Assembly: GCA_049322955.1 (NCBI GenBank)
Contig: JBMOPU010000012.1
Span: forward strand, 211,581-275,580
Reading direction: 5' to 3'
DNA from: Patescibacteria group bacterium
GTDB taxonomy: Bacteria > Patescibacteriota > Microgenomatia > UBA10105 > UBA927
Length of the DNA stretch: 64,000 nucleotides
Both the position numbers and the translations under genes were made by a program. This document shows positions 1-27,000 of this stretch, piece after piece (the first letter of the stretch is position 1; each line of letters opens with the position of its first letter). The notes beneath the pieces are model-generated. The model was not told the origin of the DNA. It made no database searches and saw nothing but the letters and a program-made list of their open reading frames with translations.

Positions 1-8
1 CACAGGAA

Positions 9-3000: not shown

Positions 3001-6000
3001 TCCAAAAGCTTGCAAACGGCGGGTTCCTCGGATTGGGAAGAAATCGTGAATTATCCCGCCTGGTCGGTAACCTCACCCGAGCAAACGGCAGATCGATTGC
3101 CTCACAGATTCCCGAGGCCCTTGATTTTTCCAAGCCCGTCGACGCATCAGCAAAGCCCTACACCGAAGCCACCAACGTGTATGAGGTGATAAAGGGGATG
3201 GAAGCGCATACCTACGTCAATCCCGCGGATGATTTGGCGGGAAATGTGTTACCGAAAGTAATCCGCGGTATTAACGAGGTGAAGACGTCATTTACCGCAA
3301 CCAACACTCCGCAGGATATCCAACGGCTTACGAAAGTCGCCGCCGATGCGGTGCCGGATGCGATTCGGATCGCTACCCGCGTGAATCAGGGAGACAGTAT
3401 GACGCCGACCGAGTCATACACGGTAGAACTTGCGCGAAATACCGCGGTTGCGATGCAGGATGGGGTAACGCAGTTGGAAGCCCGACGAGGCACCTTACCG
3501 CGGCTTACCCAGAGCGTGCAACAGCCAAATACGCTTCGTGCAGGGGATGTCATCGTCGGCAAGGACAAAAACGGGGTGGAGGGTGCACAGACCATTCTTT
3601 TGGGCATGCGAGTGTCATGGACGGATGCCTCCGGTGACCACGAGGATCTGATAAACGGTGAATCCACCGTGATAACTTTCCCCGCCGGCACGACGAGTAT
3701 CAGGATTCAAACCAGCGGATCAAGAAGTGAGGTTGAGCTCAGCGGCCCGGACACACAGCTCGTATCTGACCAGAACAAAAACGCACCATCATTTGAAGCA
3801 ACATATCAATTGAACAACGAAATTGCGCAAACTCAGGCGGCAATACAAAAAACATTAGGGAATGCGACGGTCGACACCCTTACTGCGGCGCTCGATCGTG
3901 AAGCAAAACGCAAAGTACAGAATGAGCTGGCACGACTCGGATTAGGGAACCTTCCCGACAGTGAAACCGATGCAATTGCCACCGCGCTTCGTGCGTATGA
4001 GTCAGCAGTGGCAAGAGTAATAAGTCAGCTCAACGACCGCGCGCTCGAGGGAGATCCGCAAACACGCATTGATCGCGAAACAACAACGGAAAAAGCCGCA
4101 TTGCTTCGTGCGTTAAACGCCCTTCTTATAAAACATGCGGGAACGGTGAAAGATGCAAAAATCGCCAAAGCATTCACCAATCTCGGTATTGCCCAAAACG
4201 CCAACGTGAATCAAACGCTTTCCTTCTCCGAAGGGGGATCAGTACGGGTTGTCGATGAAACCCATAAAGGGTTGCTTGTCGATGCCGCCCGAAAACAAAC
4301 CGCACCGACGGTGACGAGTATAGCGGTCAGGCTCTTTGGTACCTATACGGATAACGCGCTTTCTTACCAAAAGAAACAGATAAATCGCGTCATAGCAAGC
4401 GAGAAACCGAACATCTTTGTCCGTGCAATTTCCGGAATACTACCGGCACTTCGCGGGATCGCACGAATACCCGCATCGTTTATGAGTGCAACCCGATTCG
4501 GCAATCTCGTGGATCGCGTTCGTAATTTCTTCGGTAGGACTCCCGTGACTACACCGGAATCACCGCAGGTTGCCCAGGGAATAATCGACGGGCTCATTGC
4601 CGGGGTGAAAAACGGTGCGTATAACGATGCGTATGTCGCGCTTACAAATGCCAGAAATCAGGGGAAGACCGATGATGCAACAAAGCTTGAAACGGCACTC
4701 CGCGAAAGTATTGCCGGACGACTTTCGCAGGCATTGGGAACGACCATTGCGGTGCATCATGACATGGTTACCGCCCTTTTGGCATATGAAGGCGGGTTTG
4801 TGCAGGCGGCAAGCACATGGAATGAAACTCCGGAAGGATTGACGTCGCTTACCTTGTTTGCCGAGGCTATCCAACAGGAAGGCGGTATGGCGGTACTTCA
4901 GCAAGGTGCGATTGATGCGGTCAACGCGTTCCGTCAGGCGACAACACTCACCCGGGATATCACGCCGGAAGCGATTATCGGTGTCGTTACCCAACCAGTT
5001 GTACAGGCAACCTACACGCTTCTTGCCGATGCAAATGCCGCAACATTGGAAGCGGCGGCACAGGAAAAAGCAAATACGCCGGTAGAACGGTTGAAAGCGG
5101 CACTTGCCAAGAAGGATTACCTGACCGCATATACGCTCTTTAATGAGCTCCGTGCCAATGCGGCAAATCATCTTGACGAAATTGCCGAAGCCGATACGGC
5201 GCTCCGTCGGGATGTCGCGACCCGATTGGGCACACAGCTTAACGTCACGCTCGATCCTACAACAATCGAGATTGCCCGAATCGTTGACTACGAAGCAAGT
5301 ATCATTGAGCTCACCAATCGCTCGATATCCGAAAATTCGGTCAACAACTATGAAGAATATTTTGATGCGGCACATCGGGATAGCGAGGTTGTAGCCGCCC
5401 TTGCCGATGCCGAAGCCGCCTTCGATACGCTTGCGGCACCGCTTGGGGTAACCCGTAATAGCTATAACGACGGATTACGGAAAACGATTGATCCGATGAT
5501 GCATTCGGTATGGGATGCCTTAAAGCTTGATGAAAAGATTGCGGCGAGGATTCAGGCAGAGGAAGATGCCCGATATGACATCGGTACCGTGCGAGGATGG
5601 GTGAATATACTCCGCAACACGTTCGGTACCGCATACCGCTATACCTTTGGGGCTAATCCGATTCCCGGCATTCGTGCATTGTTGCAGATGGCGGTAAATA
5701 GAAATAGAGATCTCACACCTGCGGATCGTATCGAAGAATTAATAGCATGGGCGGCATTCCGTATAGCCCCGGCGGCGTCAGGCAATCCGGTAGGCATACT
5801 CACCAGTGCAATATTTTGGGCATGGGATGGGATTCGGATTGCGTCAGCTCCGCTTCGCTCCGTATGGAGCAATCTGGTACATCCTGAACTGGTAACAACC
5901 GCGGTTCAACCGCTTGCGGGTCCTGACATTGCTCCCGATGCCGGCATACCCGCCCGCGGTGTACGCAGGATCATTTATAACAGCAATATCTTTACCAACG

Positions 6001-9000
6001 GGCTTACCGGCGCGGAAGTGGTCAAGCGCGTGCCTATTTATCTTGTTACCCGCGTCTTGTTGCTTGCTTCAACAGGACTCGGTGGCTGGACAGGACCGAT
6101 TGCGGGGTATGTCTTCTATCAGGACATGACATTTGCCTTGCCCGCCCAAACGCGTATCAATATCGCTAACGGTTCCCGCGAAGGCTTCTTTGAGGATTTG
6201 TGGAATGCGCATCCGTTCTTTGGTATCGGTCACAAGCCGTGGAAGCCTATGTATATTGTCCGCGATCCGTTTATTTTCTTTGCCCGGTACTCGATTCCCG
6301 TGGCGGGGCAAATTCTCTTCATGCATGACATGTGGCGAGCGGTGAGTTGGCCGGTGCGGGCAATCATACGGGCAACCCAAACGCCGAGTATTCCTACCGT
6401 TACTCCCGATGCGGAAGCATTCTGGGGTAACGACGGCACCATAACGATTCTCGGCATATCGGTACCCCGTACCTGGATTAACGCGACCCCGAATGATCGT
6501 CCGCTTATGTATGTTGCAACAAGAGTGCTTTCATTGGGCGCATTAACTTCGTATGACTGGCACCGGTTTATTGATGAGGGAGGATGGCGATGGTTGTTTG
6601 CACAGCCTGCCGATCACTGGACAAGGCGGCATGACAATGCCTGGTATCGATACGTTGCCAATCCGCGGCTATGGGGCGGAGGAATAGGGGAGACTGCGGC
6701 ATTTATAGGGACTCGGGTGATACTTAACGCATCATTCGGCGGTTTCGGACTCGTGTATGATGCATTCCGCGCTGTCCGTTGGGTGCGAGAGTCGTTTGCC
6801 GGCGGATATATTCCACAGGGTGCCGCTACGGCAACGGTAACCTCGACCCAATCCCAGAATTCCGCGCAAACAAATGGCATCACTTTGGTTTCCGCAGGAC
6901 TCTACGGGGATCAACAATTCAAAAACGGAGGCATTGTCAAAATAACCTATACCGAACAGGACGGCAGTCAACATACGGTGGACGGAACACTCCGGCTATG
7001 GTCACGTGACGTCAAAGACAGCATTTGGTATGTGGTACTTCCCGACGGGAGACGCGCAGATATTCGGCAAAGTAAGATAGTCAAACTGACGGAAAATATA
7101 ACAAAGAATAACAATCAGAGCACAACGCAAACCGGCACGACGACGCAACAGACCGCAACACAGCAAAAACGTATTTACCGCACCGGGGGTATTTACACGT
7201 TCCTTAACGCGTCTCCCTGGGGACAAGGATGGGGCGGTCTTTTCCGCTACGGTTTGACCCGATACGGCGGGTCGATGCTTATGACGTCAGTCCCTGTTGT
7301 CGGTCCGTTTATCGGTCCGGCATATACCATCGCGCTCGGATTATATGATACCTATCGCGTGCTTGATTGGCTGGCTACAAGCGGCAAATTCCCTAGCTTT
7401 ACCGGCAAGCGGGCGACGCAAACGTCGCAGATATCCCAAACGGGACTGACGCTCCACGCATTACCCGAAGGCATGGTATTGCTTGGCGGCGGAAGATATC
7501 GCAACAACAGTACCAAACAATATATTGTCAGAAATGCTGAGACGGGAAAAACCCGCACGCTTCGGGCAGGGAAAGAGATTACGTTGCGCAATGAAATCAT
7601 CGAGCTTTCTGACGGAACGATGGTGTGGTTCGGTGAAAAAGGGTCGGTGATGCGATTTACGTTAACTCCTTCAACCGACACGCCGCAGGACATAATAAAG
7701 GCAAATACCGCTTTTGACGGCGGATTACTCAAGTCGGGAGTAACGGGAGAAACCCTCTTTGATCCGGGAAAGATTGGTCCTCTGGCGCAATCGCTCCGTG
7801 CGGAGATTAACGGGAAATCCTATACGATTCACATGCCGCAAGACATGAAAGAGGCGGCACGAGAGCTTCAGGATAGACGGGTTTTTGCCGCGGTAACGAT
7901 AGCCGCGTTACTTCAGGCGGAAGAATACCTGGGTGTATCCAATAATTTACCGACCGAGATTCTTGCCGTACCGGACGCGGCGTCGCCGTCACAGGCGGGT
8001 CTTGCAGGCTTTTTCGGAAGCAACAAAACCAAAAACGGCATGTTTGTGGTATTGCAAAAGAACACCGCCGACTACATGGGAATCGTTGCCCATGAATTCA
8101 CGCACGAAACACTCGGTTCCTCACCGCTTGCGGATTTCACCGAAGGGGTCGCCGTGCACATACAACGACGTATCGCGCCGAGTAGCCCTGCGGCCACACA
8201 TTTCTATACCAAGAAACTCGATCCGAAACTTTTGCATTACAACGAAGCGTATGTTCCCGCCACGGCAACGGAACTTTTCGGAAATGATGTCAACAAAGAA
8301 TACCAGGTTGCGTACTCATGGAGCTATGTGACGGGCGCGTTCCTGCTCCAGGCAATTGCCGAACTCTACGGCGATGAGGGCATGGTGAAGTTTATGACAG
8401 CCTATGAGCTGAGTAAGGATCGCTATTATCACGGCGGGTATGAACTTAATATTGCGGATAAAAAGACCGGAAAAACCGTGCGCAATCGCGATGCCATCAG
8501 GACACTTCTCATTGACACCTTTGGCGTACGCGAAACAAACCGCATCATAGGGATGCAGGAAGCCGCGCTCAAAGGCTATGGTGAGCGGTTCCTCAAAGAG
8601 GAGGCCAAAAAACAAAACGCAAACATTGTTGCGGAGCTGACAATCGGGCGACTGGCCGCAAATGACTACCAGACGCCGACATCGAACGATACCATCTCAC
8701 GAAGACATGCGGTGGTAACCCGCACGAGCAGAGGCGGATTATTTATTGCCGATGTAGGGTCGCAAAACGGTACCTGGGTAGAACATAACGGCGTTCGGGA
8801 ACTTTTGACACAGGAAGCAAGAAGGCTGGTTGCCGGTGATACGGTACTCCTCGGCGATCAAAACCGCGGAGAAATCTACACCGTCACGCAAAATACCGCA
8901 GGTGAGCTTACCTTAAAGAAAGGGGACACCGATCTCATGCTTCGTGCCAAAACACCGGCGCAATCTGCCGCGTCCGCCGCAAGGCCCTCCGCCCGGTACA

Positions 9001-12000
9001 AACCGAACGGTTGTTCTTCCTGTCGTGCGGAGTTAATCGTTTTCGAAAAGATTATGGAACGCGTTTTAGGAGCGGCCCAGGCAGAAACGCCGAATATTGC
9101 CGAAGCCAAGCGACTTATCGCGCTCGCCAAGGGTTATTTCTTGCGCTACACCATGGCAAACACGGAATTCCAATCCGTCGCAAAGGCAACGGTTGAGGTG
9201 GCGGAAGCACAGCTTATCAAAAATAGCGCCGAACAAGATGATGCCGTCGTAGCGCTTTCTGATGCGATCCTGCGCATGGAACAACGGACAGATGTTCCCG
9301 AAGAGCTCGTTTCGGAATGGGACGAAGCCATTGCCTATCTTAAGGAGAGAAGGGAAGAGGTGAAGGGTATGGCGGTTATCGAGGCGACGGAAGTCGAACG
9401 GATTCGTGCACAAGTGACAAGCGGATTCTATACGGCACAGGCCGCCTTGGGTGTGTATGTCCCCGTCGGATTGCGGAACGAAGGAGACCAAACTCTTGCC
9501 TCGTTTGGTATTACCCGGCCGACGGACGCGCAGATTGTGGAACAGGCAGTTGCCTCGATTGTCCCTGCGGCGGTTGATGCGGTGCGTATCGCACAGCCGG
9601 ATCTTGCGCAGGAAAATCCCGAAGGGTTTATTGACACGACCATGCAATTTATTCAACAAACGGCCGAATACCAGGAACTGCTGTCGGGGAGAAGTCCCGC
9701 GGTGATCATATCGTCAATCCGCGCGGCATTGGCCGTCGTCGTGCGAAATTCCGTGAATGCAACCACTGAAGGGCAGGCAGTTACCGTTTTTGCCTCCCCG
9801 CAAGAAGCCATTGAAAAACTTCCCCTGCAGAAAACCACGAAAGATACACTCCTTCTTGTTGTAACCAATGAAAATGAAATAACCGATAAACGGTTGGTTA
9901 AGCTTCGCGACTCCAGTGCGTACTATCCGCCGAAACCGGGCAATGCCGCATTAAACGGAGCGACGACCTCGTGGAACTGGTACTCCGAATTCACACAGTC
10001 TGCCGCGTGGGACTCCGTGTATCAGGAAGTTCGTCGGATAATCGCATCGGGTGAATCTGACGTCGTAAAAGCCGTGCAATTGGAAGCGCTTATGAATGTG
10101 ACGGAACGGGAAACCGTGCAAAAAGCCGAAGATGGTGTAGCCAGATTGCGTCGTGCGGTGCGTTTTTGGATAGACGGTTTTACCAATGTGCTGACGGAAG
10201 AGCGGCTTACCCAAGTGCTTGATGATCTTTCGTTCGGCAAGGTATATCAAAGTAAAACAGCGGGCGGGGAGGTACAGCAGGTTATTTTGGTGACGCCGCA
10301 AACCTTCGGCTTAAGCGTCATGAGTGCCTTGGATCGTGCGAAGGTGTATATCGCTTCGTCCGGTTCCAATGCGATTAACAGGGTCAGCACGATGTTTTTT
10401 GCCGAACCTCCCATTGAAGTGACGACCAACGAAAACGGTTCGGAAGTATTGGAACATGTTAGGAAAAATCCCAAGAGTATTATATTGAAGACCCGCTTGC
10501 CGTCGGGTGAAACGGTGACTCCGGAAGAAAAACTGAAAGGATATATCGATGCCATCGAAACAAAAGGCGCACGCAAAGTGTCCTTCACGGTTATTTCTAA
10601 GACGGGGGTACGTGATCAGAAAGTGCTCTCACAACTTGCGGAGTATGTGGCGACATGGAACACGGGGCATCCGGGCGACATCGTGCGTCTTACGGTCGAT
10701 GTGGTGCAGGAGTTCGGACGAGACTCCGATATTGAAGTATTCAAGTGGTTACTGCTTCCCGGCGTACATTCACTGGTGCATAGCGGTTCGAAAGCCGCGG
10801 GCGGGCCTGCTCATGCGGGCTTTATATGGGTTACCGCCTACGGACAGACGTTGGATGGTGCAAATGTTCCGTCGCTTGCACAGAACATCGAATCCCTTAC
10901 CTTTGCCGAACAACTTCGAGTGGTGGGAAATGTTGAAGCGATTATTGCTATGTTTAATCTCCCGTCGGAGTATCGGTTGGACGGGGAAATAGCCCGGGCT
11001 GTTGCCGAAGAAGCGGACGATTTCAACCGATCACTCGGTCTTACGCCGCTTTGGGAGGAGGCGATCGTTTCGGATACGACGCAACCGAAAGGTGATGACG
11101 GAAAATATCCGGAAAAGAAAGTGTTATTAGAGCAAAAGAATAACGAATCCATCCGCTCGTATCGCATCCCGTTGGTGTACCGCGACGGAAAATTAGTGCC
11201 CGAGGTTGACGCAAAAACATTGCTTCGCACATGGGAGGAATCCGGATATATTATGGGCGGCATTTTGGAGGAAACGCCGGATTTGGGGCCCATTCTTCGC
11301 TACGGTATTTCCACCCAACTCATGCGACAACTTTTGAATGAAGGGATAACAACGCCAGAGGACGCCCGGGCTCGCGTGCGGGCGCTATTTGCCGAAAAAC
11401 AGGCTGAGCTGGCAAATAAATATACTGAACAGCGACGTGCAAACGAGGTGCCCGTTACGGTTCAGACCCAAGAGCAACAGGGCTACAATAGGGAGCAATT
11501 TACCGCGGCACACCCATGGCTTGCGGCATTCGGATCGATATTCAACACGACGTTTAACGCGATGTTCTATGCGGGCATCGTCTTTTTGGTTGTTACGAGC
11601 GCAAGTGTAATTGCTCCACTGTTCGCGCCCCTTATTGTTCCCGGATTCGCCTCGATTTTTACCGCCGCATGGATTTTCATCACGGCGGCGCTTCCGTATT
11701 ATTATGTTTTCAAAGATTCCCCGAGTTACGACATAAACAGGGTGCTATATGCCGCTACCGTGCGGTTTGATTCGACAAAGACCGGCACTCTTACCGTTGA
11801 GACCCCCCAAGCCAAAACAGCCGGCATAAGTCAGGAAGCGCGAAGCAATTTCGAGGCGAATCACCCGGTGCGGTACACCGTTGCAAGAATTCTTGATGCG
11901 CTTCTTCCGGGATTAATGATCGGACTTCTGGTGTTATACATGGTTTCCTCCGGTCTCGGGCTTGTCACACTGTATGCGGCGGCATTTGCCCCGTATATAA

Positions 12001-15000
12001 GCGCATCAGCGCTCACCGTTATCTTATCTATTCTTTCTGTTCTGCCGCTTCTTGCAGTGCACAAAGATATTGCGGCGACGACTCAGCAACTGCACGACAG
12101 TATCTACCGCATCATGATGCCCGTAGCTTCGGATGGGGAAGCGGAAAATGATCGCATGCCGTTGCCGACGCCGCCAATTCAAGTAAAACAAGTTGAATTA
12201 CAACCGGAAGGGCAAACATTTCGGATGGGAAATGATCTTGTCGATCCTCTCGAGGAGATATTTACCGAAATGGTACAAAAAAATCATCCTGAGTGGGATG
12301 GAAAATGGGAAACGGTGCGGACGTTCTTCATGCGATATTTATGGGATAAACACTTTACCGTTTCCTACACGCATGACGGCACAAAATATACCTACACCAC
12401 GAGTGATGCAAAAGAAACCTTTGTAATCACTGATGTTGAAGAGTTTATCGATGCGCTCTTTACGTTTGATTCCCTGATAAGCGCAAATAAAGAAAAATCT
12501 CAATGGATTGAAAATCTTACCGTGCAAACAATTTGGGAGCGGGCAACAAGCTATGATTTTGCGCATCCTACCGAGTTTCTTCGTCGATATACGCAACAAT
12601 TCATCGCAGGTCAGATCCCATTTGTTGATTGGGTAACCGTGGGTACGATAACAACGCGGCAGGGCGACGAGCAAGTTCGCGTGCGGTCGGTTGAAGCGAA
12701 GCATTCCTACATGGAAAGTCCATATATATTGGAAATAAGCTCGGTGAAGGATAATGCTGATCCGAACGACCCGGCAAATCAGCTCCACTCACTGCATTAC
12801 GGCATCGATTCAGCCACGCAAGTTTCCCTCTACACAGTACAACTATCATCAATCAATGATGCGTCCAACGGGAAATTCGCGGAATCAGAGGTGTCTATCT
12901 CAATTCGCATGAACCGCATACGGTCATATCTTGAGGAGTTGGGATTGTTAACGAATGCCTCTTTTACGGTTCCCGACTCCGATGTGGATTGGCTGGATTT
13001 GGAGCGCACGCTTGCGGCGCTTGCGCCTGCGGTTGCCGCTCGGGTAGCAGATACGCCCGACACCGATAAACAATACGCGACATTGACCAGGCTGAACGAT
13101 GAAATTAAAAGAGTACAAACCCTGGTAGGTGAATTAATTGTAAAACGAAAAGAAATACCTCAGTTAGAAAAACGTGTTGCCGCGTTAAAACGCTACAACT
13201 CAATGGTCGATGGGGGCGGGGCATCAATGATGAGTTTGGTAACTGCTCTGGCCACCTTGAAACGATTAGGATATACCACTGTGCGGATACCGGTGCTCCT
13301 TAAATACGTACAGCATGTAGGGGTTAACACTGCAGAAATACCCGCATTGTTACGGAGCGATTGGGAAAGAAAAATAAAGTCTCTTACTTCATTTACGGGC
13401 ATCAAACAAGTGTCAACCGATGATCCCGATGTAGTGATGCTTGATTTGTCCGCATGGGATTTTGATCTCACAAAAAACAACACACGAACACGGGATCTCG
13501 CGCCGTTCTTGCAAGATGTGAAGAATATGCCGGTGAAAGAGGCTCCGCTCAATTTTGATGGGAAACCTTCAAGCAACGGGCTGTTTGCGTTTGACCAAGG
13601 CTTCGTACGGTTTATGGGGATGATAGATGCCCTAAAGGCATTTATTGGGCGGCTTATGCGATCGGTACCGTTTGTAAGAACTTCGACAACTCCCGTTGAA
13701 GAGGAATTGAACATGCCGTTGCCGACGCCGCCGATTCGTCCTGCGGAAGGACAAAATACCGATGCCGAAGCGGGTCTTCCCGCCCGAACAGATGAGTTGA
13801 TTGCGGAGATCCCGGCATCTCCCGGCACCGGATTTTTTGCAAGCTCGATGGACTTTCTCATTTATCAGGGACAACAAGCCGATGCGGGTACACGATTTGC
13901 CATCACGATGAATAGGCGAAACGGCAAGCCGTCGGGAGTGTGGGTCATGAACGCATATCCCACCGACGGGCAAACCGTCGTGTTAAACGGCAGACAGGTA
14001 CAACAAGGAGATGCCGTTTATCTTGTTGATAATTCGGTATTTACGCTGGGTAATCGCGAGTATCGGGTTTCCGTCGTCGGTGATTCGCTCCGAATCGTTG
14101 CGGATGCCACAGTCGATGTCGCGTCTAACAATCTCGCAACCGTCGGAGATGCCGTCCGATCAATGCGTGATGAATTACTCGGCTTGCTCACTGATGACCT
14201 TGCCGAATCACTTCGTGATGCGACAATTCAGGACGTCAGCATCGTTGATCTGATCGAATACGCCGTCCCGATCATCACCGGATCGGACGAGTATCAACGC
14301 ATCACGAATGACCGAACGGAAGCGGAGAAGGAAGAAGTTATTCGCTTGCTGAGGAGCATGTTGCCGTCATTCATCATTGAGCAGGTACCCCTTGCTTCTC
14401 CGGAGTTATTGGCGACGCGGCAAGCCAACCGTCGTGTTGAGGCAACACTTTCAAACCCGGGCGGAGATACACTCATAAATGAGAAAATTCCGCTGGAAAT
14501 TGCCGCGATTCAAACGGTAACGGACGTGATTGCGGCACAACTCGCACTTCCGGATTCGGCGCGATTTGCGGTGATGCAGGTGTTAAGTAGGATTCCGGAT
14601 GTCGTTGAATTCCTCACGAGACGATTATTTGACTCTTTACATACGACGGCCCGCGATCCCTTACGTCTTCCCGGCGAGACCATGGCAAAATTTGGGGAAG
14701 GTGAAGCAGACGAATTGCGTCGGGTCGGGATCGGAGCGCAGAGAGTCTGGAGCTCAATCGCGCTTCCGCTCTTCACCTCGCGCGGATATCCGGTTGTTGC
14801 GAGACTTGATGTCAGAAACCTCCGCGGAGCAAACGACGTGGCAGGACAAGGCGGATACACGCCGCTTGGGGACTATCTGCTCAGAAAGTTTGCGGATAGC
14901 GTTTTTGAAGCTCTCGGGCCTGATTATGAGGTTATCCGCGTAGGCGGCGATGAATACATGATACTCGCGCGGCCGGGCGCGGCAACCGACGGCGTACAGC

Positions 15001-18000
15001 AAAGGATTGAGGCGGTATTGGCAACAACCCACATGTTATACAAAACGCCGCAAGGGATAGAAAACCAGCCGATTCGTGTCGAGTTTAAAGCACCTGACGA
15101 ACTGCTTCCTATTGAAGAACGTAATCATGGCGGTGATTGGTTGACGCTGATGGAGAAAGGAATCTATACGGATGATGCCACCATTGATGCAGGTAGTGAT
15201 TTCCATCCGATGCTCGCGTATACGGCACAAATCCTCACTTCCATTCGCGTACCGCTTGCCGGAGAGCTTACCGCATCGCAAATTGCATCGGTGCACGGAG
15301 TAATAAAACGGATCATGGCGGTACTGCTGTTTGATGATGTCCTTCGTGATAGCGCACGGGGCATGCAGGAGTCTTTCCGTGCCAAGAATCCCCGTGCGAC
15401 CGTTGCCGTGTATGAAGATGTGCAGGACTGGATGGAGGCGGTACGTGTTGAGATGCCGCTCGGATTTAAGATTGTCCGGTTCGACCAGCCGGGGATTCTC
15501 AAAATGCTTAACTCGATGAGCAGTCTTTACGGAGATCAGATGATTGTCCGTCAGTTTGAGAAGCTCGCCCGGTTTGCCTTTGAACGTCTCGGTGTCACAA
15601 ACGTGCGTGTGTATCGACGCGCGAACGAATTATACCTTGCCGTTGACCCTTCGGTGACAATCGACACGGAGCAGATGCAGGATGCATTACGCGGGTATGG
15701 CGATAACGCCGCAGGTCTCTTTAAAGAGCTTGCGGTGGTCAGTCAATCGGAAGTGACGCTCGTGCCGACCGGCGTCGACGGTCGCGGCGCGTCGGAAAAT
15801 GTCCGACAACTTAACAGGGCGTTGTCTGAACTAGCAAACGGCATCGTAACGCATACGAATGCAAGCATCTTGGATGAATACGTTCGCAAACCAAACAACA
15901 TACTTACTCGGATACGCAACCGGTTTGCCCGTTCCAGAGAGGTGACTTCCGAAACGCTTGCCGACCGTCAGTTTATCGTCAATTATCTCAATCCGTTCGA
16001 TAAGCGCGGTATAGACCGGATCCAACATATCGGAGCGACACCGGAAGAAATAGAGTCACTTAAACGATTTTATGTGCAGATCGAGCCCGGAGCGGGGAGC
16101 GTGGTACAAGATGATCAGGCGTACGCGACGATTATTACTCTCTTAACGAGAATCAATAGGGACAACAATTGGTTTATCAAGACGTGGAATACGCTTATTG
16201 AACGTATCAAATTTGCCAATCAAGAAGTAAGCAGGATCGGGATTGTTGCCCCGGGTACGAGGGCACTGTTCAGTATGTTTGGCGGAACAGATCATTCCGT
16301 AAATATTACGAACAGTGCGCGCAAAGAACAACATACGGCGATTGCAACCCTGCTATCACGACAATTTACCACTGATAAGTCATTACAGGTGCAACTTATC
16401 GCGCATCTATCGAACGCCAAAAACGCGTTTATCATGGACTTTATCGCGGATCATCTGATGGACGGTTATTTCCAGGAAAGCAGAAAATATATTAATGCAC
16501 GTAAGTTGCCGGGAGTCGGGAGAGAGTTGCAGACGGATCAGGATCAAATTGTTGAGCTTCATAACAACACCGAGTCACCGCAGTCAGTATGGAGTATTCA
16601 TGCAATTCCGTTCCTTCAGGGCTTGGGAGCTCAGGTAATGACGGTCTTTGACGTAGAGCCGCTTCCCGACACGAAACTTGACTCCGCAACGCAGACGGCG
16701 CTTCGTGACTTAGAACTCCGAAGGGTGGTTACCCTGATTCATAACCTGGGAGGCGGCAATTACCAGATTGTACGTCTTAATGACAACCGGTTTGCGGTAA
16801 TGATGATCGGGACGGTGAGTGATTCGGAAAAATGGGAACTTGAGAACAGACTGCAACGGCTGGAAACCTTGGTGGCAAGACCTGATGCGCAGGGGAACGT
16901 TGCGTTTAATCGATCTCGATCACACGTGTTTCCCTTCATTCCGGTTACCCTCAAGTCTGAGGAAGAACTTCGCCGCGAAGGCGAGGAGTTTGCCGCAGGC
17001 ATCAATCTCTTTACGCCGATGACCAAGAAACTCCTGTATCTTGCGACGAAAGGCTTTGCCTACCAGCAGGATGAAGAGATAGCGAAGAAACAGGATGATG
17101 TGCTGACAAACCCCGCGCGTCGGGTGAAACTGCGTGCACAGAACGCAGGTTATGCACAAGTACTTGCCACGCTAGAACAGGACACGATCCTCTATGGTCA
17201 GGCCGACTTTGTCTCCTATATTTCTTCGCTTACCGCAGCCATGGCATCGGATGACGTTTTGGACGGGACGGCCGCCAAACTCGAGGCAAAATATAACAAA
17301 AAAGATCCTGACGTCAAAGTACGGGTATTTGCCGATCTTCCCTCGACACTGAAAGCGGCACGTGCTCAATACGGCGATGAGTTCAGTGTCATTGAAGTAA
17401 ACGTTGACGAGACACTCCGATTAGTCGGAAAGGCACACGGGTACGAACAGGGAGACATCTTGATCCAAACCTTGTTTGAAAAACTCGGCCATCATATTTT
17501 TACCGAATTGAGACTGCAAAATATGATCGTCTATCGCGAGTCGGCGACCAAATACTATGTCGTGTTAAACGTCCACTATCCGCTCGATACGAAACGAATG
17601 CAATCCAAACTGAATGCGGAATATTCGCCGTATCGGGTAGGTGAAAAAGAGTATTTTGTCCTGCCGGTTGTTGCCATGAAGCATATCGGCCTAAACCCCA
17701 GCGTTACGGTGGGAGAGGCGGAACAACAATTTGCCGCCGCACTTATTGAATTGCAAAAATACTCGGAAACGAAGATGCGGGCCGCCATACGGGAACATTT
17801 CGTTAAGGAAACAACGCTTCCTCCGTTCCATTGGGCGTGGTTAATTTCCTATCTTCGTTCCGGCGGTAATGCCGAGGAGGTTCTGGCAAAATTCAGCAAT
17901 AATGCCCGAGATATCAGTGCGGCGGCGCAGGTAACCACCGTTCGTCGTGACGGAAATTATTCGGATATACGACGCGTCATCACAAAACAGACCTCGGAGG

Positions 18001-21000
18001 ATTTAGAGACACTGCGCGAAATCAGCATGGAAGAGACCTCAAATTGGTCGCTATGGTACCAGATGAACAATGAGTTCAAAGGGTTAGTGAATGTTATCGG
18101 GGAATTATTCCTGGGGGGCATGGAGGTGATATTCTCGAAATTCCCGCCAAAACCGTATCTTCGCCCGAATGTTGCCGAGGTTGGAAAAGATAATGAAGAC
18201 GCAAAACAAAATAGTTTTGAAGCACAGCTTTCAACGGTATCGCAACGCAGGAGTGAAAAACGGGCGGTAGCCCAAGTGTTGCCGGTCGGCATTGATCCCG
18301 ATATTTCTGAAGATATCGTGGGTATCAAATCTATGGCGGCGCATTTGGCGTACGCCTACGGTAAAGATTACATCCAGCCGTATCCCGGCGGACAACGATT
18401 GCTTGCCCACTATGATCCCAACATGCCGGGAGCCCGCTATCCGGGGCATCGCGCTATCCCCGTTTCCGTTGCGTTCTATACCCCCGCCGAGGAAAATCGG
18501 TGGACTCGTTTCTTGGATTTCCTGGCGAAGCTTGTGTATATAAATCGCTTTACCGGTACGTGGGAAGTGATGGAAATAACGCCCGCCGAAATCGGCTCTG
18601 CGATGGCGGAATATGAAGCCGCCATGCATACCGTCTATAAATCAAAAGCCGCGGCGACCGAGGCAAGAAACACAGCGTATCAGGCAGGGATTGAAAAGCT
18701 GGAAGCAATCTTAAGCGACAAACACCTTGCGGCAAAAACAAACCCCGTCGCAGTAAGCCAATCACGACCGAGTAACATCGTATTTGCGGTGGTTCGGGGT
18801 ACGACGGGGTCGCTCGCGCAAATCCATGACTGGTTCGGTAAGGTCGGAGCGCCGATTCTTATGGCGTTTAATGACAGTCGCGAACCGGTTGTCATCGACG
18901 ATCATGTGGTGGTCGACGGTAATCCCGGACTTGATGTGCGGGATAATATCATGCGGCAACTCGGAAGTTTGGTGAGCGAAGTACATCAGGTGCCGCAGAT
19001 TATCGAAAACAAAAAGGATCAACGAAAAACCATTCGCGCGGAGGATTTGCCGCGCAATATCCAATACGAAACCATCATGATGGCAGTTGCCTATGCCATG
19101 CGAAAGCAGGGCTTCCCCTCATTGGGAACAACGGTTGCCACGGGCTCCCTTGATGACCGCGTTACCTTGGGAGCGGTATCCCTTCGAGAACCCGTCAAGC
19201 CGCAAGCGATTCGCGTCGCCATAGAACAGGCGCATTCGGAATATGGCTTACTTGATCGTTTGGCACATATATACCGGCATGTAGTGCCTGCATGGTTGGA
19301 ATCGTTTATCACGGCGCTTTCTGAGGTTTTGCCGATCACGCGTGATTTCGTAAAAATTGCCGGGAAAGGACCGTATGTCACCTTTATCCGCCGCGATTAT
19401 ATCGGTGATCCGGGATTACTCACCACCGTGCTTTCCGACATTCCGTTTGATAAGAATGTTCCTACCGTCGTCATCCTGCAGGATAAAAACACCGGGCAAT
19501 CACGCATCGTATTACAGGGGGTCGCCAATGATGCCGTTCGTGAGCAGATGTTGCAGGATATTTTTGAGGAGTTACATCAGCTGGAGCAAGGGATCACACG
19601 TACCGCAAATGATTGGCCGAAGCCGAAATCGCAGATTGTCCGTCAATTTGAATCGCTCGCCATGTATTATCGACGCTTCACGGGAAGATCGGTGCAACGG
19701 GCATCATCATCCTTTGAGAACGCGAAAATCGTCACCAAGAGCACCGCCTATACCACCACCACCAAAGAGCTGGCGACGGTGACGGACACAACGACGCTTC
19801 CCGGTGTAACAATTACCATTGCAGGAGACACGCTGACGATGACCAATGAAGTAATGACGCTAATTTTGGCAAAAGACATGGCTTCTCCCGCAAGTCTGAC
19901 ACCTACGGAAGTAGCGCAACTTCGCGAAACGATTAACACGTACGAACAGAATAAACGCGCATTGGCAAATGTTCCCGACACCTCGACCGGTCTTTCGGTA
20001 CTAAACCTCATCATGCCGTCTCTTTTCGATACGAATAATTCGGCGCGCGAGACGACGAATATCGTGTCACTCCAAATATTCTATGCATCACAGGGCAAAC
20101 TCAAGGCATTTAGTTTGGCACCCCGTGACGATACCATCGTTGATGGGGTAACGACCGATGCTGAAGTGGGTATTGTCGGGAATGCCGACAAATATAAAGT
20201 CATGGACGTACGAAACGGCAAGATGCTGGTCGTGCGAAACGGGCTTGAGAATGACTTGACCGACACGCAGAAAAACGCTTTGGAAGATCTGTTCGTCAAT
20301 GCAAAGACCGTAGAGGAAGCCAACGAGCAGATTCAAACCCTTTTCCAGCAGTGGTTTCCGAACGCGTCCCGATCCGATCAATTTGTCACCCTGATTACCA
20401 TCCCCGCACAGGAAACGGTAGAACGAATCCAGTCTGGGGCAGTACAGCTTCGTTTGGAGCCCGATACGGCGATATTGCGCGATGCGCCGGTTCCCACCCG
20501 CGAAGCACGTCAAAGAGATCCCGGACTTGAGAGTGTTGCCTACCCGGTAACGTTCCGTATCGATGAATCGGGTGCCATTGTTGCCACCTGGGCAAACAAT
20601 GCGCCGATCACGATAAACGGTGAGGAACCGGACGGCACCAGCGCCAAGCTGTTTGTCGGTGACGTCATTCGTTTCGGCAACGACGGCATGGCGTATGAAA
20701 TACTGGTCGACGATACCAACCATGCGGTATTGTCGGTGCAATCACACCCCGAATATACCGTCACCCTGCCGCGCACCGTGATCCCCGAATACGGACTCAT
20801 CAACATGTCACGTTCAACGATGGTGGTGGATGGGGAAATAAACCTTGCCCCTTTAGATATGCTCTGGCCGACAAATACGGCAAACCCGCTCTTTATCGAG
20901 CTTCCCGAGGAACGAGGGACGGCACAAACAAACGGGAGACCGGTAGTTGTCCGCAAAAGGGCGGATATCCGGCTTGCCAACGGACAGGAATCATGGTTAC

Positions 21001-24000
21001 GGGCAATTGTCCTTCCGTATCCCAACGAGGTTGCGCCGGCAATGAAAGCCAACGTTTGGTATCAGGTGAAAAACCAGGCTGGTGATATCGTGGGATCAGT
21101 TCGTAGAATCACGGCAAATAAATTCATGGTCACCTATACCCGCGAGCCTGAACAAAGTCAGACACGATCGCTTCCGTTCCTCCGTCCGTCGCTTCCCGAT
21201 CAATTGCGTACCGACCACCAACGCGCCGTGACAACGACAAGAACATCACCTAATTACGCCGCGGTGGCAACAACGCGCCGGGTCGGGCAGATGGTGCATG
21301 CAACGGGACAGGTCAATCACACAGGCGACAACGCACGACGATTCGGTGCCACGGGAACGCCCGTCAATTGGTCGGTTAAACTCCGCGAAAGTGATATTCC
21401 GTATTTTGACAGTCTATCGGAAACGGAAAGACTTAACTGGATTACCCGGAGAATTCAGGAAGCGGACGAAATCGTGTATGCCCAGCATGGGTTCCAAGCC
21501 GACGGCAGAGTGTACGCAAAACCTATGCAGGAGATACTCCTTCCGTATGCGACTGATGGCAGACGACAGGTGGGCGTAGCACCGTCTCTCATGGGAGCAA
21601 ACGGCACGTATATCGAAAAACAACCGTACCATTATGAAGATGCGCTACAACAATCGATGCACTTCTACACCGCACTTGACGGCTTCTTTGATTTCAGACA
21701 TAAGCGGGTGACGTTTATCGGTCAATCAACGGGAGCACGTATTGTGCTTGAACTTGCCGGGTTATTGTCAGAACAACAGCAATTACCCAAAGATGTACGC
21801 TTCGAGCTTGTCGCCCCGTATATTCTGGGACGCAAACAGCTCAAAATATTCGACGGCGGATGGGGGCTCGGATTCCTCTATGGGTTCGTCAATAATCGCA
21901 ACGTCCCGATGCCGGTACGAAGAACATTCTTATTGCTTGCCAGGTTGCCGATTTTTATCGTCACCACTCCTGACCGGGTGATCGTGAACAACCGGTTAAG
22001 CGGGCTTACGGGAAACCCCGCCATTGCTGATGCAAGCATCATTCATCGGGAAAACCAGCAGGATGTCGCATATTCGACCCGATGGACGGATGTGATTTTG
22101 GGAGTGCCCGCCATTGATTGGGAAGCACTACCGGAGGCGGTTCGCCTTGCCCCGATTCGATTCCACCTGCCGCAAAAAGAAAACATCGTCGATCAAAAAC
22201 AGACGGAGGACTTTATTGAGGAAAAGAACCTGCGAAGTCAACAGGGCTTTGCGGTCGTAACCTACGGCGAAGGGCACTATCCGATCGACAAAGACTGGCA
22301 GAGGGTGGGGGCACACTTAAACGGGATTGCCCAAACCGCGCAGGAGCCCGAAACTCTACAGCCGATGCGACGATTCGGATTTGAAGTTGAAATGCCGCGA
22401 TTGGTGGAGCGCGGAGAGGATCGTCAGCCGCAACCAACGCCGGGTCCTGGAGTACATATCGGCACGAAGCAACAGGGAACCAACCGATTCGTCGAGCCGA
22501 ATAAGACGCTATTTAGCCAATTTGACGTCGATCATGCCAGCGTGCAACCGGAAGGAGAGGGTCTTACGATTACTAATCGTTCACCAAAAGGCACATGGAT
22601 AAACGGGGTGCTTCTGTCGGTAGGGGAATCAAAAGCAATCGCCTTCGGCGATGAGGTAGTGTTCGGACAAAACCCCAATGATCCCGAGGAAACGGAACTA
22701 TGGCGGTATCGCGTAGATATGAGTCCGACGGGCAATGTGGCTCTTGTACGATTCTCGCCGGTTGCTCAAGATAACGAAGCGGATATTTTGTTACCGATAG
22801 TTCTTCCCAACGGGGCCAAAGAAAACTTTGCCAAGAAGGCGGCACTATTTGCTCCCACCGATTCCTTCAGGTTGGCTTCAATTGCCGAACTCCCGTGGCA
22901 ATCGGATGAACGGATCATCATCGAGTATCGGACGGCAAACGGTACCCGGGCATCGTTGTCGGTTCGAGCTACCACGTCAATTTCCGACATTTTGGATCGA
23001 TTGCCGTTTGGTGCCGCAAATGACATGCGTATCTTAAAGAAAGTCACGAAAGGGTATGTCCAGATCGGGACTATGGAGCGGATTCCCACAGGATGGGTGA
23101 AGGTGTTTGGCATAGAAGGCAACGTGCCGGCGGTGGTAGAAACGGGTGTGCCCGAACCGGCGGCGGTGGCGGCAGAAAAGGCCGCCGAGCGTTTGATAAC
23201 CTTTGTCGGAGGTGTAAATCACACTGCTTATCCCACCGAACAGGACGTAAAAACGGCGTTTGCCGAAACCTTGGGCATAGATGCCTCCTATATCGTCGTG
23301 CAGGCCATCACCCCCACCGACTATGCAATCAGCATAGACGCCCCGTCACTGGTGTTTTCCGGTAACGTTATTGAACGGGATAAAGGCGTACGATTCTTTC
23401 ACATCGATACGATAGCGGTTCCCGCCGAGTTCCGAAAAAACGGGGAAACGGCAATGCGTTTTCGCGCAATTGAGGGAATTATCCGATCTCTTTTCAGCGT
23501 CGATCGTGCGGAAGCGGTAAATCAGCCGACCAGTGAGGCCGCGAAGAACTTTTGGAAGTCCGTAGGATTTGCCCCGCAGACGAATTCGGCGCTCAACCAA
23601 ACGTACAAAAAAGATTATCGGACGGTGAGTGCAACTTCACTCTATGCGTTTGACCAGGGTTTTGCCCTGTTCATGAAGATGACCGATGCGATCGGAGATT
23701 GGATAAAGTCGAGGTGGCAGACGGAACAAACGAATTCAGGTGTATCCGTACCGGTACGTGTCGCGCAAACAGAAGTGAATGTTAATGCCAATACGGCAAA
23801 TCCGATATCTCAGGTCGTCGTCGGATTACCGATTGAAGACAGGGCAAAGTTTCTTAATGAAATGGGCTTGCGGGAAGAGCAGGTTATCCCGATTAAAACA
23901 AAAGTAATTTCATTGCATCCTGATACCGCCGATGAGATGAAACAAGCGATTGAACGAGGTGAATATTCGTTCATTGTGATACCGGTTGCACTGAATGCTT

Positions 24001-27000
24001 CTCTTGCCGATAAACTGGCCTCAATTTCCAAAGAAGAGCATCTGTATGCACTTCCCACCCAAGGGAGAGCGATTATTGCCGCGGCAACGCCCCAGATGAT
24101 TGATGGCGTTACCTATTATGACATCAACGTGAAAGGCGTCGGGAATACCGGCAACTCACAATGGGGAGGATTTATTTCTGACGGCGAGTTAGTACCGACG
24201 GGTGGAGGAAGAAATATAAGCGGTTACACGGAAAGATCATGGGAAATGGCTGCGACAGAGAAAGCACGTGAATTTGGTCTGCGTTCTCCTGTCGTGATTG
24301 CAATTACTGAGCCGGAAGAGCTCATATATGAAGGAGAAGTCCAGCCGTTGCAAAATATTTTGCAAAAAAATACCAGCTTGCCTGATGCATTCAAGCCTAT
24401 TCAGATACTTGTTGCATGGAGAAACGCCACGCGCATCATTGATTTGTTCGGGGGTTTTACCCAGAATTCAGAATTAAATCCATTTTCTATGGTCATGGGA
24501 AGCTCGGAACGATATCCCGCTATTACTGATGCGCTTCCGCCGGGCTTTGATGAGCCACTTTTTACAAAAGTTTTTGGTTCACTGAAAAAAACTGCAGAAC
24601 CGCACCTTCTCATCGCGGCAAAACGCCTGAGCATTGAACTTGGAAAAAATTTGAGTATCAGGGACTATCTGACCGAGGTTGACAAACTTCTTATCCAAAA
24701 TTTTCGATTGATGGTACGGCATAATATTTTACAGCACAATCTCACCGCGCAAAATATTTCGCTGGCGGGTGAATTTGGTGATTGGGGAGACGCATTTTCA
24801 TTTAATGGTCAAGTACTGACACCTGAACAGGAGCAGAAAGTTCGGATTTCAGATTTCCATTCATTTTATGAAGCATACGTGATGCTACATCTGGCGGGAG
24901 GTGATAGAAACATCCCGACCATCTCTGAGTTCTATCGTACGGTAATCGCGCAGACGGCGCGTAATACGGCATTTTATCCTGCTACATTCGACCGGTTTAT
25001 CAATGCGGGCGTTAATGAAAATTCCGTCGAGGGAAAAGCAACAATAGCCCGTAATCGTGCAAACGTGCAAAGATACGCACAAAAAATGTCCCGCATACGG
25101 AACGCATACTTTGATACTCCTACTCATAGGATACTTCAGGTCATAGAGTCGATAGGCAAGCGGATGAATCCTCTATGGCTCAGTATCCGGGGAACGATAA
25201 ATAAATTGATTGCGGACGCGCGAAGTGATGTACGCCTCCAACAGAACCGTTTTCGTAATTGGCTCGATGTTATGCGTCTTTACGCGGAACCGTATCCGCA
25301 AAATGACTCATTGGTGCAGATTGCCGAAGAGATAGTCAGAGAAATAGACGGTTCTTTTCCCAATACCGCAGGAAGTGTCCGATCACTTGCCGCACAAAAC
25401 AATCTATCAGAGCTGACGATATACCTCGAAGAACGGGTTGATCAGCTCGAAGACGCGGCGGGCCCCAAATTGGGAAGATATCTCCGAAATCGTATTGATC
25501 GACTGCACTTTTTAGCGACACCTGCTCCATTATGGAGGCAGATAATCAACAGGGTATTACGATGGTGGGGAAATCAGCAGGTTGTGTATTTTGCCGAACC
25601 GACACAGACAAGATTTTGGAACATGGTGGAAGAGAAAATAAACAGCTTAGTCGGCCGCAATACGAATGATGTTTCGCTGTCTCCTCAAGAAGCAGAACAA
25701 AGAGCGGATGCATATTTTGCCTCGGAAGATGCACGGGATATGGCGTCGACTATTTCATTACACATCGAGGCGATGCAGTATCAGGAGCGGTGGTCAGATA
25801 CCGGTATGCCGGAGGAAATATTTCGAGATTTGATAAATGCCGCGCTCGCAAAAGAGCAGGAATACCGGGAATTTCCAACACAAGTGAAGTTGCTTATTAA
25901 TACACGGGTAGAAGCATTTGTTGCGGGCAGAGTCAACAATATGCCTGATCTTCGCCCGTTCACCACGCGTGAGCGTTTAGCTTATCTTTTCCGATCGATC
26001 TTTAACCCTGTGCTCAATCGCTTGGACATTTATCGTTCGCGCTATTATCGGGATAGGGTAACTATCGCATCGCTTTTTGCGCTTCAGCCTGCAATTGATG
26101 ATCGTGAAGCCGACGCGTATTCAAAAGCTGCGGTTGAGCGTTTGAAGAATGCGAGAACAACCACACAACAGCTTGTTCTTGACCAACACAAACAGAAAAT
26201 AGAACGAAGAAATTTTGATTTTACGGCAAGAGACAATGCATTCCGTCGGGCAAAAAACCGTGAACTGAATGCACAGTTGTACCTCTGGTGGCGACGGCCA
26301 TTTTTGCAGTTATCGAAGGCATCTGCCGCGATAAAACTCTATCGTGCGGGAGTGTCAAATCCGATTGCTTTGCTTACGCACCTTGAACGCACGGGGAGTG
26401 ACGATATTTTTTCCTATGATTTTAAAGAAAACGGCGAGCAAATTACCGGTCTTGATTATGCGCGGTGGATAAGAGCAAACACTTATTCGGAAATTCCCTA
26501 TATACGCGTTACGGAACGGCTTTCACAACTATTCACTTTTCCTTCATTGTTCGGTTTTGTTATCCCGGACATAAAGGATGAGCTGAATGAGTTGGGGAGC
26601 TACTCCGATGAAATCTTTCAAACCGTTCTCGCCGAGCTGGATAGGTATCCTTTCTTATCGAACTCATTCACCAGTCCCTATACCTATAGAAACAATGATA
26701 AGTACGGAAGCGGTCATATTGCCTCACCGTCATTCATCTTTTTCCTTCAATTATTACAACAGGGAGGGCTTAGCGAGAATCAAAGACGGATATTCGGTAT
26801 GGCGCAACTTATCAGTGATTACGGCTTCGGAGACGTGCTTCCCGAGATGGGGAATTTGGAACAAAATGAACAGTTGCTTACTGATTTATTGACGGTTATC
26901 GAGAATATCTATGCACACAAGGACATGACGACCCTTCCTGGATTTGGTGGTGGTAACCGTCGTGATTACAATATGGAACGAAATCTTGGACACCTTATTA

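Follow-up and report, generated by a model that had tools for sequence, protein, structure and literature searches.

The stretch of DNA considered here (the window: 64,000 nt of contig JBMOPU010000012.1 from a Patescibacteria group bacterium) carries a giant open reading frame (ORF) whose product of ~13,400 aa is, by comparison with its relatives, a shuffled mosaic of modules that recur in other proteins of 6,000–7,700 aa. The reading that we put forward, and that on balance we judge with modest confidence to be the right one, is that of a giant membrane-anchored mosaic in which one forkhead-associated (FHA) domain, FHA1, would be the single reader of phosphothreonine (pThr), and two further modules, FHA2 and FHA3, would be phospho-independent beta modules. 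The original prediction for this DNA concerned nt 8620–22690, an interval that lies wholly within this one plus-strand ORF, and proposed four FHA modules, two with the full signature and two with its C-terminal half, which together with a GGDEF module would make the protein a phospho-dependent scaffold or signalling hub rather than a simple adhesin. The six motifs on which it drew are all present in the ORF where they had been placed: SRRHA at nt 8697 (aa 2897), GSQNGTWV at nt 8757 and GDTVLLG at nt 8835 in FHA1, and VDHASV at nt 22527, SPKGTWING at nt 22581 and GDEVVFG at nt 22647 in FHA2. The number of modules was not borne out by Pfam, hidden Markov model (HMM) or hhalign analysis, according to which the interval holds one definite FHA domain, probably one degenerate FHA-like module, possibly one remnant and no fourth module. 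Residues are numbered throughout so that aa 1 corresponds to nt 9 of the window.

The chain was scanned with Pfam both in one piece and as 1,000-aa tiles, the gathering cutoff of the FHA family PF00498 being 20.7 bits. For a local FHA HMM, 322 FHA segments were taken from proteins returned by an exhaustive HMMER search; it was applied without any filter, and 300 shuffles of the giant protein served for its calibration (maximum 5.9 bits); the FHA alignment was also compared by hhalign with 287 overlapping 130-aa segments spanning the whole protein, and solved structures in the PDB were queried by sequence for FHA1 and FHA2. The PF00498 match to FHA1 (E=4e-12, 46.7–48.2 bits) covers model positions 2–67 of 67, and the local HMM and hhalign gave 78.6 bits and 99.7%, respectively. 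Its PDB matches are the bacterial FHA domains of CT664, EmbR and OdhI/GarA, its NCBIfam matches are the FHA domains of TagH, GltG, FipA and OdhI, and a weak match to PF16697 (Yop-YscD_cpl) also falls on it. In the FHA family pThr is contacted by a Gly-Arg pair in the beta3-4 loop, by Ser-x-x-His in the beta4-5 loop and by Asn in the beta6-7 loop. FHA1 retains G2880-R2881, S2897-x-x-H2900 and N2920-G-T, all aligned to conserved columns of the local HMM, and every one of these key residues is kept in a related locus of 92% nucleotide identity (L009). As judged by these scores FHA1 is an unambiguous, ordinary member of PF00498 and, among the FHA-like modules of the chain, the only one that has the residues needed for pThr binding in the alignments; from these residues we infer that it would bind pThr. 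It lies ~4,800 aa into the full-length chain.

FHA2 is probably a real but degenerate FHA-like module. Its Pfam score of 20.3 bits falls below the cutoff that FHA1 clears, extends over model positions 22–67 only, i.e. the C-terminal two-thirds, and was lost in the tile scan, so that of the two full signatures originally proposed that of FHA1 stands and that of FHA2, with its contacts lost, does not. The local HMM gave 13.4 bits over model positions 30–79 of 81, a score reached by none of the 300 shuffles, and hhalign gave 93.5% over 54–55 columns that include the His of the SxxH motif. This residue, His7509, is retained, whereas the contact Ser is replaced by D7506 and the contact Asn by K7527 in both the HMM and the hhalign alignments, and the Gly-Arg pair reads G7485-T7486, the latter as aligned by eye only. 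A phmmer search of the PDB with FHA2 returned matches at noise level, and NCBIfam returned none in that tile. The FHA2 orthologue in L005, a relative ~87% identical to the window protein, is ~93% identical and scores higher (18.2 bits), and the ratio of nonsynonymous to synonymous substitution rates (dN/dS) of the module is 0.22. Because its Pfam score is below the threshold and its binding residues are not preserved, FHA2 is filed here as FHA-like only and not as a functional FHA domain.

FHA3 is ambiguous and may be an FHA remnant. It has no Pfam or NCBIfam match, and its local HMM score of -0.7 bits was reached by 7 of 300 shuffles (2.3%); hhalign gave 47–51%, also after a divergent orthologue had been added, and placed FHA3 third-best of the 287 segments, with a score of 27 against a background of at most 19.5. 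Its core is 100% identical in L005, the segment is conserved in the relative L008 (43% identical), and its dN/dS is 0.05. Of the two C-terminal halves originally proposed, one thus survives as this uncertain candidate and the other did not rise above background; indeed, no fourth site did so in hhalign over the whole protein, and GANGTYI at aa 7196, SRSHV at aa 5636 and the stretch at aa ~2517–2555 were rejected as FHA modules because they scored at background level. FHA2 and FHA3 show no detectable similarity to each other (hhalign 5%). In the sequences compared, the FHA2-like and FHA3-like modules belong to a conserved unit of the order FHA3-like module, block C, FHA2-like module. The coordinates of these and the other features of the chain are collected in Table 1.

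Table 1. Position of the giant ORF and of the modules recognized within it (nucleotide positions are those of the window)
Feature	Nucleotides	Residues (aa)	Strand	Description
Giant ORF	3..34733		+	11,576 codons in the window; open at the left edge
P-loop helicase-like module	519..947	171-313	+	Walker A APGGAGKT at aa 189-196; IVDEV at aa 308-312
HExxH module	7341..8588		+	AHEFTHE, aa 2695-2699, nt 8091-8105; directly upstream of FHA1
FHA1	8613..8861	2869-2951	+	Canonical FHA domain; Pfam, PDB, local HMM, hhalign, NCBIfam
Block A	9795..11381	3263-3791	+	Best-conserved module of the protein family
Block A core	10266-10928	3420-3640	+	Predicted large domain of the pyridoxal phosphate (PLP)-dependent fold type I
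Transmembrane (TM) cluster	11514..12059	3836-4017	+	Two uncharged blocks, ~51-66 and 54 aa
GGDEF-like (palm) module	14775..15053	4923-5015	+	Divergent; GGDEY motif
FHA3 candidate	20550..20687	6848-6893	+	Possible C-terminal-half FHA remnant (ATWANNAPITINGEE...LFVGDVIRFG)
Block C	21342..22370	7112-7454	+	Alpha/beta-hydrolase-like; between FHA3 and FHA2
FHA2	22503..22679	7499-7557	+	Degenerate FHA-like module; Pfam, local HMM, hhalign
Block D	27765..29699	9253-9897	+	Common to the 7,662-aa protein P0003/L007
C-terminal region	33093..34337		+	Cys-rich part, aa 11029-11357, then second HExxH

It might be argued that FHA1 is the only FHA domain in the chain and that FHA2 and FHA3, as small beta modules of unrelated origin, have no more in common with it than the widespread strand-turn pattern NG...L..GD.h.hG. 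That both match just the C-terminal half of the FHA model would be expected on this view, as would the shuffle result for FHA3, the absence of similarity between the two modules, the noise-level PDB matches of FHA2 and its lack of an NCBIfam match. However, the FHA2 score was beyond the reach of every shuffle and rises further in the L005 orthologue, its hhalign match takes in the SxxH His, and FHA2 and FHA3 were the sole sites besides FHA1 to exceed background among the 287 segments. We therefore regard a separate origin of the two modules as doubtful, while taking it seriously.

The comparison with close relatives bears directly on the role of FHA1. The protein of L005, the closest divergent relative, is 86–88% identical to that of the window over aa 756–2288 and 4535–7771, but aa 2289–3249 (nt ~6873–9755), a stretch of ~960 aa that holds both the HExxH module and FHA1, have been swapped for ~1,790 unrelated aa, in which neither an FHA domain nor any Pfam match was found. 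L009 keeps the FHA1 cassette, while L005 replaces it and yet retains FHA2 and FHA3, and for this reason FHA1 is, on the evidence of these relatives, an accessory, exchangeable module. Since L005 has replaced the cassette, pThr reading would not be core to the protein family.

These observations argue against the multi-FHA hub, according to which several pThr marks would be read by three or four FHA modules and cyclic di-GMP signalling would be added by the GGDEF module. One canonical and two FHA-like modules do share a single chain, the GGDEF-like module does have a GGDEY motif, and the architecture itself is real: unrelated database proteins contain 4–6 bona fide FHA domains, so that a multi-FHA chain would not be new. 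Against this, the contact Ser and Asn of FHA2 are missing in the alignments and its Arg is missing as judged by eye, FHA3 is not significant, the fourth module is absent and the sole competent FHA domain is dispensable in L005. Moreover, a search for the Ser/Thr kinase and phosphatase genes that such a hub would call for found no Ser/Thr kinase or PP2C phosphatase in ~74 kb (the window and 10 kb upstream of it, as represented by L009), and no kinase motif was found within the giant protein. We consider the phospho-dependent hub improbable. The accompanying suggestion that the protein is not a simple adhesin fared better, enzyme-like and signalling-type modules being present in it; self-BLAST of the giant protein detected no internal repeats, which is unusual for a protein of this size and disfavours a repetitive adhesin.

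The frame of the giant ORF is uninterrupted from nt 9 to nt 34733, with no in-frame stop back to the left edge of the window, and L009 supplies the missing 5' end, in which the open frame extends by as many as 1,933 further codons. The full length is ~13,300–13,500 aa depending on the start codon, i.e. 13,322 aa by the gene call in L001 and ~13,500 aa by the ORF in L009. The start codon is ambiguous: that of the 13,322-aa call is a GTG 187 codons into the open frame (L009 4196–4760), which would leave out a basic stretch and a strongly hydrophobic anchor (aa 52–70), both of which are included by earlier starts. The same locus was present in four other metagenome samples (L001–L004) at 99.2–100% nucleotide identity, and dN/dS over the whole protein, measured against L005 on 5,320 aligned codons, was 0.137. 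On the strength of this ratio the ORF is a genuine protein-coding gene under purifying selection and not an assembly artefact. An artefact or a decaying pseudogene, in which case the modules would not form one functional chain, could be suspected from the fact that >90% of the protein has no match to a known family in the Pfam scans, and from the splitting of the L005 ORF by one frame change; the recurrence of the locus in four independent samples, a frame open for >34.7 kb in the window and continuing upstream in L009, the low dN/dS and the confident predicted fold of the block A core (see below) leave this explanation with hardly any credence. The frame change in the L005 contig lies at nt ~17900–18100 and divides the sequence into a 6,021-aa ORF and, in another frame, a 1,207-aa ORF, both homologous to the window protein; it may be a true frameshift or may stem from an error of assembly or sequencing.

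Relatives were collected by an exhaustive HMMER search (aa 2601–3800), local BLAST and a scan of a genome collection (alignment A2). A word-index protein search missed even the protein's own 13,322-aa copy, and its silence is no evidence for orphan status; a scan of GTDB genomes with aa 2801–3400 found no relatives. Block A is common to four large proteins (P0001, P0002, P0003 and P0012; 5,978–7,662 aa) and to many standalone proteins of 500–700 aa. Copies of block B (aa 4864–5355, which holds the GGDEF-like stretch) and of block C are present in P0002/L006 and L008, with their relative positions changed. No FHA domain was found in the large relatives P0001, P0002, P0003, P0012 and L006–L008. 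Three fragments (P0005, P0006 and P0014) span aa ~2445–2950 and, like L009, preserve the order of an HExxH module followed by FHA. The record labels of the relatives are inconsistent, three metagenome-assembled genomes being named ‘uncultured Gammaproteobacteria bacterium’ and L007 ‘Candidatus Woesebacteria bacterium’.

The replaced FHA1 cassette is not the only difference from L005, which has no counterpart of aa 3829–4534 (nt ~11493–13610), the stretch with the TM cluster. Block A lies between these two differences, and in the L005 comparison its synonymous divergence (dS 1.46) exceeds that of its flanks (0.44–0.59) about threefold, which suggests that the block A region is recombinant. The paired TM-hairpin module looks like another mobile cassette: a TM-hairpin pair recurs near the N-terminus of the distant giant relative P0002/L006 (aa ~489–647) as uncharged blocks of 45 and 46 aa, and the spacing of the blocks within a pair is about 60–70 aa.

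The anchoring of the protein was assessed by hydropathy only. At the N-terminus (L009 4196–10000) one strong anchor follows basic residues and is itself followed by ~750 aa in which Pro, Thr and Cys (29 Cys) are abundant. The sole other strong hydrophobic segments are the two uncharged blocks at aa 3836–4017, each of the length of a hairpin, which probably form two helical hairpins, i.e. ~4 TM helices. An anchor plus four helices would place both giant lobes outside the cytoplasm, with which the Cys-rich ends of the protein would fit.

Our working hypothesis is that FHA1, standing behind the HExxH module and ahead of the PLP-fold module and the TM hairpins, would dock onto a pThr peptide, which may belong to a partner protein or to another part of the giant chain, and that this docking would recruit or gate the adjacent HExxH and PLP-fold enzyme-like modules. 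FHA2 and FHA3, which bracket the hydrolase-like block C and have both lost the pThr-contact residues, would most likely act as phospho-independent beta-sandwich spacers or interaction modules, a role that degenerate FHA domains have in secretion-system proteins such as YscD or EssC. The identities of the domains, their conservation, the mosaic structure and the swap of the cassette are shown by the data; the regulatory role of FHA1 and the side of the membrane on which the modules lie are what we infer in this scheme, and confidence in the mechanism is limited because the topology rests on hydropathy.

Several observations weigh against this hypothesis. No gene for a kinase or phosphatase that would write or erase the mark was seen in the ~74 kb surveyed. 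The HExxH module has no detectable peptidase homology, with no Pfam match and only noise in a PDB profile search, so that its assignment as a metallopeptidase is a guess at the level of the motif. AlphaFold2 (AF2) prediction of aa 6801–7600 from the single sequence was unusable (mean pLDDT 35), although beta strands were predicted at FHA2 and FHA3. Finally, FHA, P-loop and GGDEF-like modules normally need the cytoplasmic ligands pThr, ATP and GTP, and the apparent topology would put FHA1, the P-loop module and the GGDEF-like module where these are unavailable. Additional, weakly hydrophobic helices, an odd number of helices or action of the modules in another cell may offer a way out of this paradox.

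Among the enzyme-like modules, block A gave the clearest result. Its motifs VDAVQ.FGR and HSGSKA.GGPAHAGF resemble those of class-V aminotransferases and cysteine desulfurases (NifS/IscS), and a search of the PDB with its profile gave PvdN (E=0.013). Pfam gave no match for block A, nor across all members of its alignment, where no family recurred and no aminotransferase family appeared. With a 19-sequence alignment (A1), AF2 predicted the core at a pLDDT of 92.6, and all 50 of the 50 Foldseek matches listed were fold-type I PLP-dependent enzymes (NifS-like proteins, AEPT/AEP transaminase, SepCysS and IscS), the best with E=9e-8; 816 matches had E<=1e-3. The Lys of SGSK (K176) and the Asp of VDxVQ (D145) are invariant in A1 and are candidates for the Schiff-base Lys and for the Asp that contacts the pyridine nitrogen. 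As modelled, the block A core is a new family, absent from Pfam, with a PLP-dependent fold, which only structure prediction brought to light.

Block C, with the motifs HGF and GQSTG (a putative nucleophile elbow) and invariant candidate Ser, Asp and His residues, is probably an alpha/beta-hydrolase: 14 of the 17 PDB matches of its profile were lipases, esterases or thioesterases with these motifs in register (best E=0.003). The GGDEF module of the original prediction is plausible, although it falls short of the Pfam cutoff (PF00990, 15.8–16.3 bits against 23.8; model positions 35–114 of 161) and of that of TIGR00254 (13.8 bits against 37.4). Six NCBIfam diguanylate-cyclase models match it weakly, all four of its four PDB matches are GGDEF-domain (diguanylate-cyclase-type) proteins, VGGDEY and LDVRNLRGAND line up with, respectively, the GGDEF-type motif and D...ND region of 3icl and 4zve, so that the active-site motif and an upstream metal-binding Asp are both represented, and the module has a dN/dS of 0.035. 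A genuine, if divergent, palm domain is its probable identity. The P-loop module matched DEAD (28.2 bits) and ResIII (24.3 bits) in Pfam, both marginally, and phmmer found no match for it in the PDB; an identity as SecA_DEAD was not supported, no SecA family being matched in Pfam even at E<=1.

In the HExxH module upstream of FHA1 a Glu lies 12 residues past the second His, and the P0005 counterpart of the motif reads AHEHVHN. Towards the C-terminus, three NCBIfam short-chain dehydrogenase/reductase models match block D weakly at aa 9491–9580 (nt 28479–28748; E 0.004–0.008), a hint of a Rossmann-like fold. The Cys-rich part (nt 33093–34079) has ~30 Cys, none with CxxC spacing, and the second HExxH motif reads IHEYMHE (aa 11439–11443, nt 34323–34337), with no Pfam or PDB match in the region.

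The 10 kb upstream of the window, as represented by L009, encode Rho, which marks the organism as a bacterium, a LysM-M23 peptidase and a small ORF without assignment. Downstream of the giant ORF (34745–63558) are genes for a PIG-L deacetylase, an NPCBM-domain protein, a HAD protein, a dTDP-sugar epimerase, YfhO, several family-2 glycosyltransferases, a WecE-like aminotransferase, a WcaF-like acetyltransferase and a PLP decarboxylase, together with a 510-aa protein with an archaeal/SipW-type signal peptidase domain and several ORFs of 500–760 aa without a family match; by its gene content this region is a glycan and cell-envelope cluster. Searches with aa 1–3000 (tblastn) found no match in phages or plasmids, no relatives of block A were found among IMG/VR viral contigs, and PADLOC returned only a 15-bit Cas3-like match to the P-loop module. 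An identity as a ‘polyvalent’ protein of mobile genetic elements or as an anti-phage defence protein was dropped in the absence of a phage, plasmid, viral-contig or defence match.

The neighbourhood, the topology and the exchange of cassettes might together point to a delivered multi-effector, both lobes of which would be exported via the N-terminal anchor, with the TM hairpins forming a further anchor or a pore. The cytoplasm-type modules, namely FHA1 and the P-loop, PLP-fold, GGDEF-like and hydrolase modules, would then act in a host or prey cell, FHA1 would target foreign phosphoproteins and the swapping of modules would reflect an arms race, as it does for MARTX and polymorphic toxins. The anchor, the Pro/Thr-rich linkers with their 29 Cys, the Cys-rich C-terminus without CxxC and the apparently even TM count all accord with export, as do the neighbouring cell-envelope and glycan genes and LysM-M23 peptidase; close relatives differ by a replaced cassette, and blocks have been shuffled; and one relative is labelled Candidatus Woesebacteria. 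Bacteria that belong to the candidate phyla radiation (CPR) are inferred to be epibionts with large, fast-evolving surface proteins (PMC11809585, PMC8080830). On the other side, Pfam, NCBIfam and self-BLAST revealed neither a secretion signal nor an autoprocessing protease, RTX-type repeats or a toxin domain, the TM count derives from hydropathy alone and the taxonomic labels of the relatives disagree. We also know of no mechanism that could export a chain of ~13,000 aa. We consider a delivered multi-effector unlikely and place it behind the view that FHA2 and FHA3 are unrelated modules. The fullest version, an exported ~13,400-aa ‘mega-effector’ whose FHA1 would read another cell's phosphoproteome and whose HExxH-FHA1 cassettes would be exchanged in the course of an arms race, is in our estimation a little less likely again. 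The membrane-anchored mosaic with one pThr reader is the reading that we retain.

Once checked, the FHA observation that occasioned this study is a modest one, of an ordinary FHA domain accompanied by degenerate relics. The protein that hosts it is of more interest: it has ~13,400 aa, is free of repeats, and has modules that turn up in shuffled order in other giant proteins and are exchanged between close strains. Giant mosaic proteins of this kind are a large reservoir of unannotated domains, of which the PLP-fold family of block A is one resolved example. Should it be true that the cytoplasm-type modules lie outside the membrane, the protein would point to delivered multi-enzyme effectors of a new kind among uncultivated bacteria.

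FHA1 resembles the PF00498 domains of OdhI/GarA, EmbR, FhaB/FipA, TagH and Chlamydia CT664 in keeping Gly-Arg, Ser-x-x-His and Asn-Gly-Thr, but differs from these bacterial FHA proteins in that it occupies a strain-variable cassette of a ~13,400-aa chain and has no cognate Hanks-type kinase or PP2C phosphatase within the ~74 kb. Degenerate, phospho-independent FHA-like domains are found in the cytoplasmic domains of the type III secretion proteins YscD/EscD (PF16697) and as the N-terminal FHA domains of the type VII secretion protein EssC. FHA2 likewise keeps FHA-like strand patterns without the pThr-contact residues; unlike in those proteins, no secretion-system context was found, and what FHA2 and FHA3 flank is a hydrolase-like module, not a ring component or secretion ATPase. 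Modular chains whose internal cassettes, including alpha/beta-hydrolase-type ones, vary by recombination from one close strain to another are also seen in MARTX and polymorphic multi-effector toxins. The window protein resembles them in this respect, whereas RTX/glycine-rich repeats, a cysteine-protease autoprocessing domain and a type I secretion context were not found for it and it is about three times larger.

Large (>5,000 aa) patescibacterial proteins are described as having no full-length homologues and reshuffled domains (PMC11809585; PMC8080830), and the window protein shares with such Patescibacteria/CPR proteins the same lack of full-length homologues, the recurring domains and the suspected recombination. 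The published CPR giants are described as FhaB-type adhesins with repeated domains (the ‘FhaB’ of PMC11809585 being filamentous haemagglutinin and not a forkhead-associated protein), in contrast to the window protein, which is repeat-free and has enzyme-like modules. Giant multi-domain proteins of Omnitrophota (the ‘Archaeovorin’ and Dockerin types) and actinobacterial giants have been reported to carry numerous TM regions, helicase-like domains and GGDEF (West-Roberts et al. 2023, bioRxiv 10.1101/2023.11.21.568195); FHA has 0 occurrences in that paper (bioRxiv 10.1101/2023.11.21.568195). Compared with these giants, the window protein has no detected SecA_DEAD or SecA preprotein-binding domain, its sole matches of that type being to the generic families DEAD (28 bits) and ResIII (24 bits), and by hydropathy would have one anchor and a cluster of ~4 helices, fewer than the numerous TM regions of those giants; its relatives are labelled Woesebacteria or ‘uncultured Gammaproteobacteria’, and no sequence relatives were tied to Omnitrophota. 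It is nevertheless like them in its size, in having TM segments, a helicase-like P-loop and a GGDEF-like module, in its divergent and mostly unannotatable sequence, and in the presence of glycan genes nearby.

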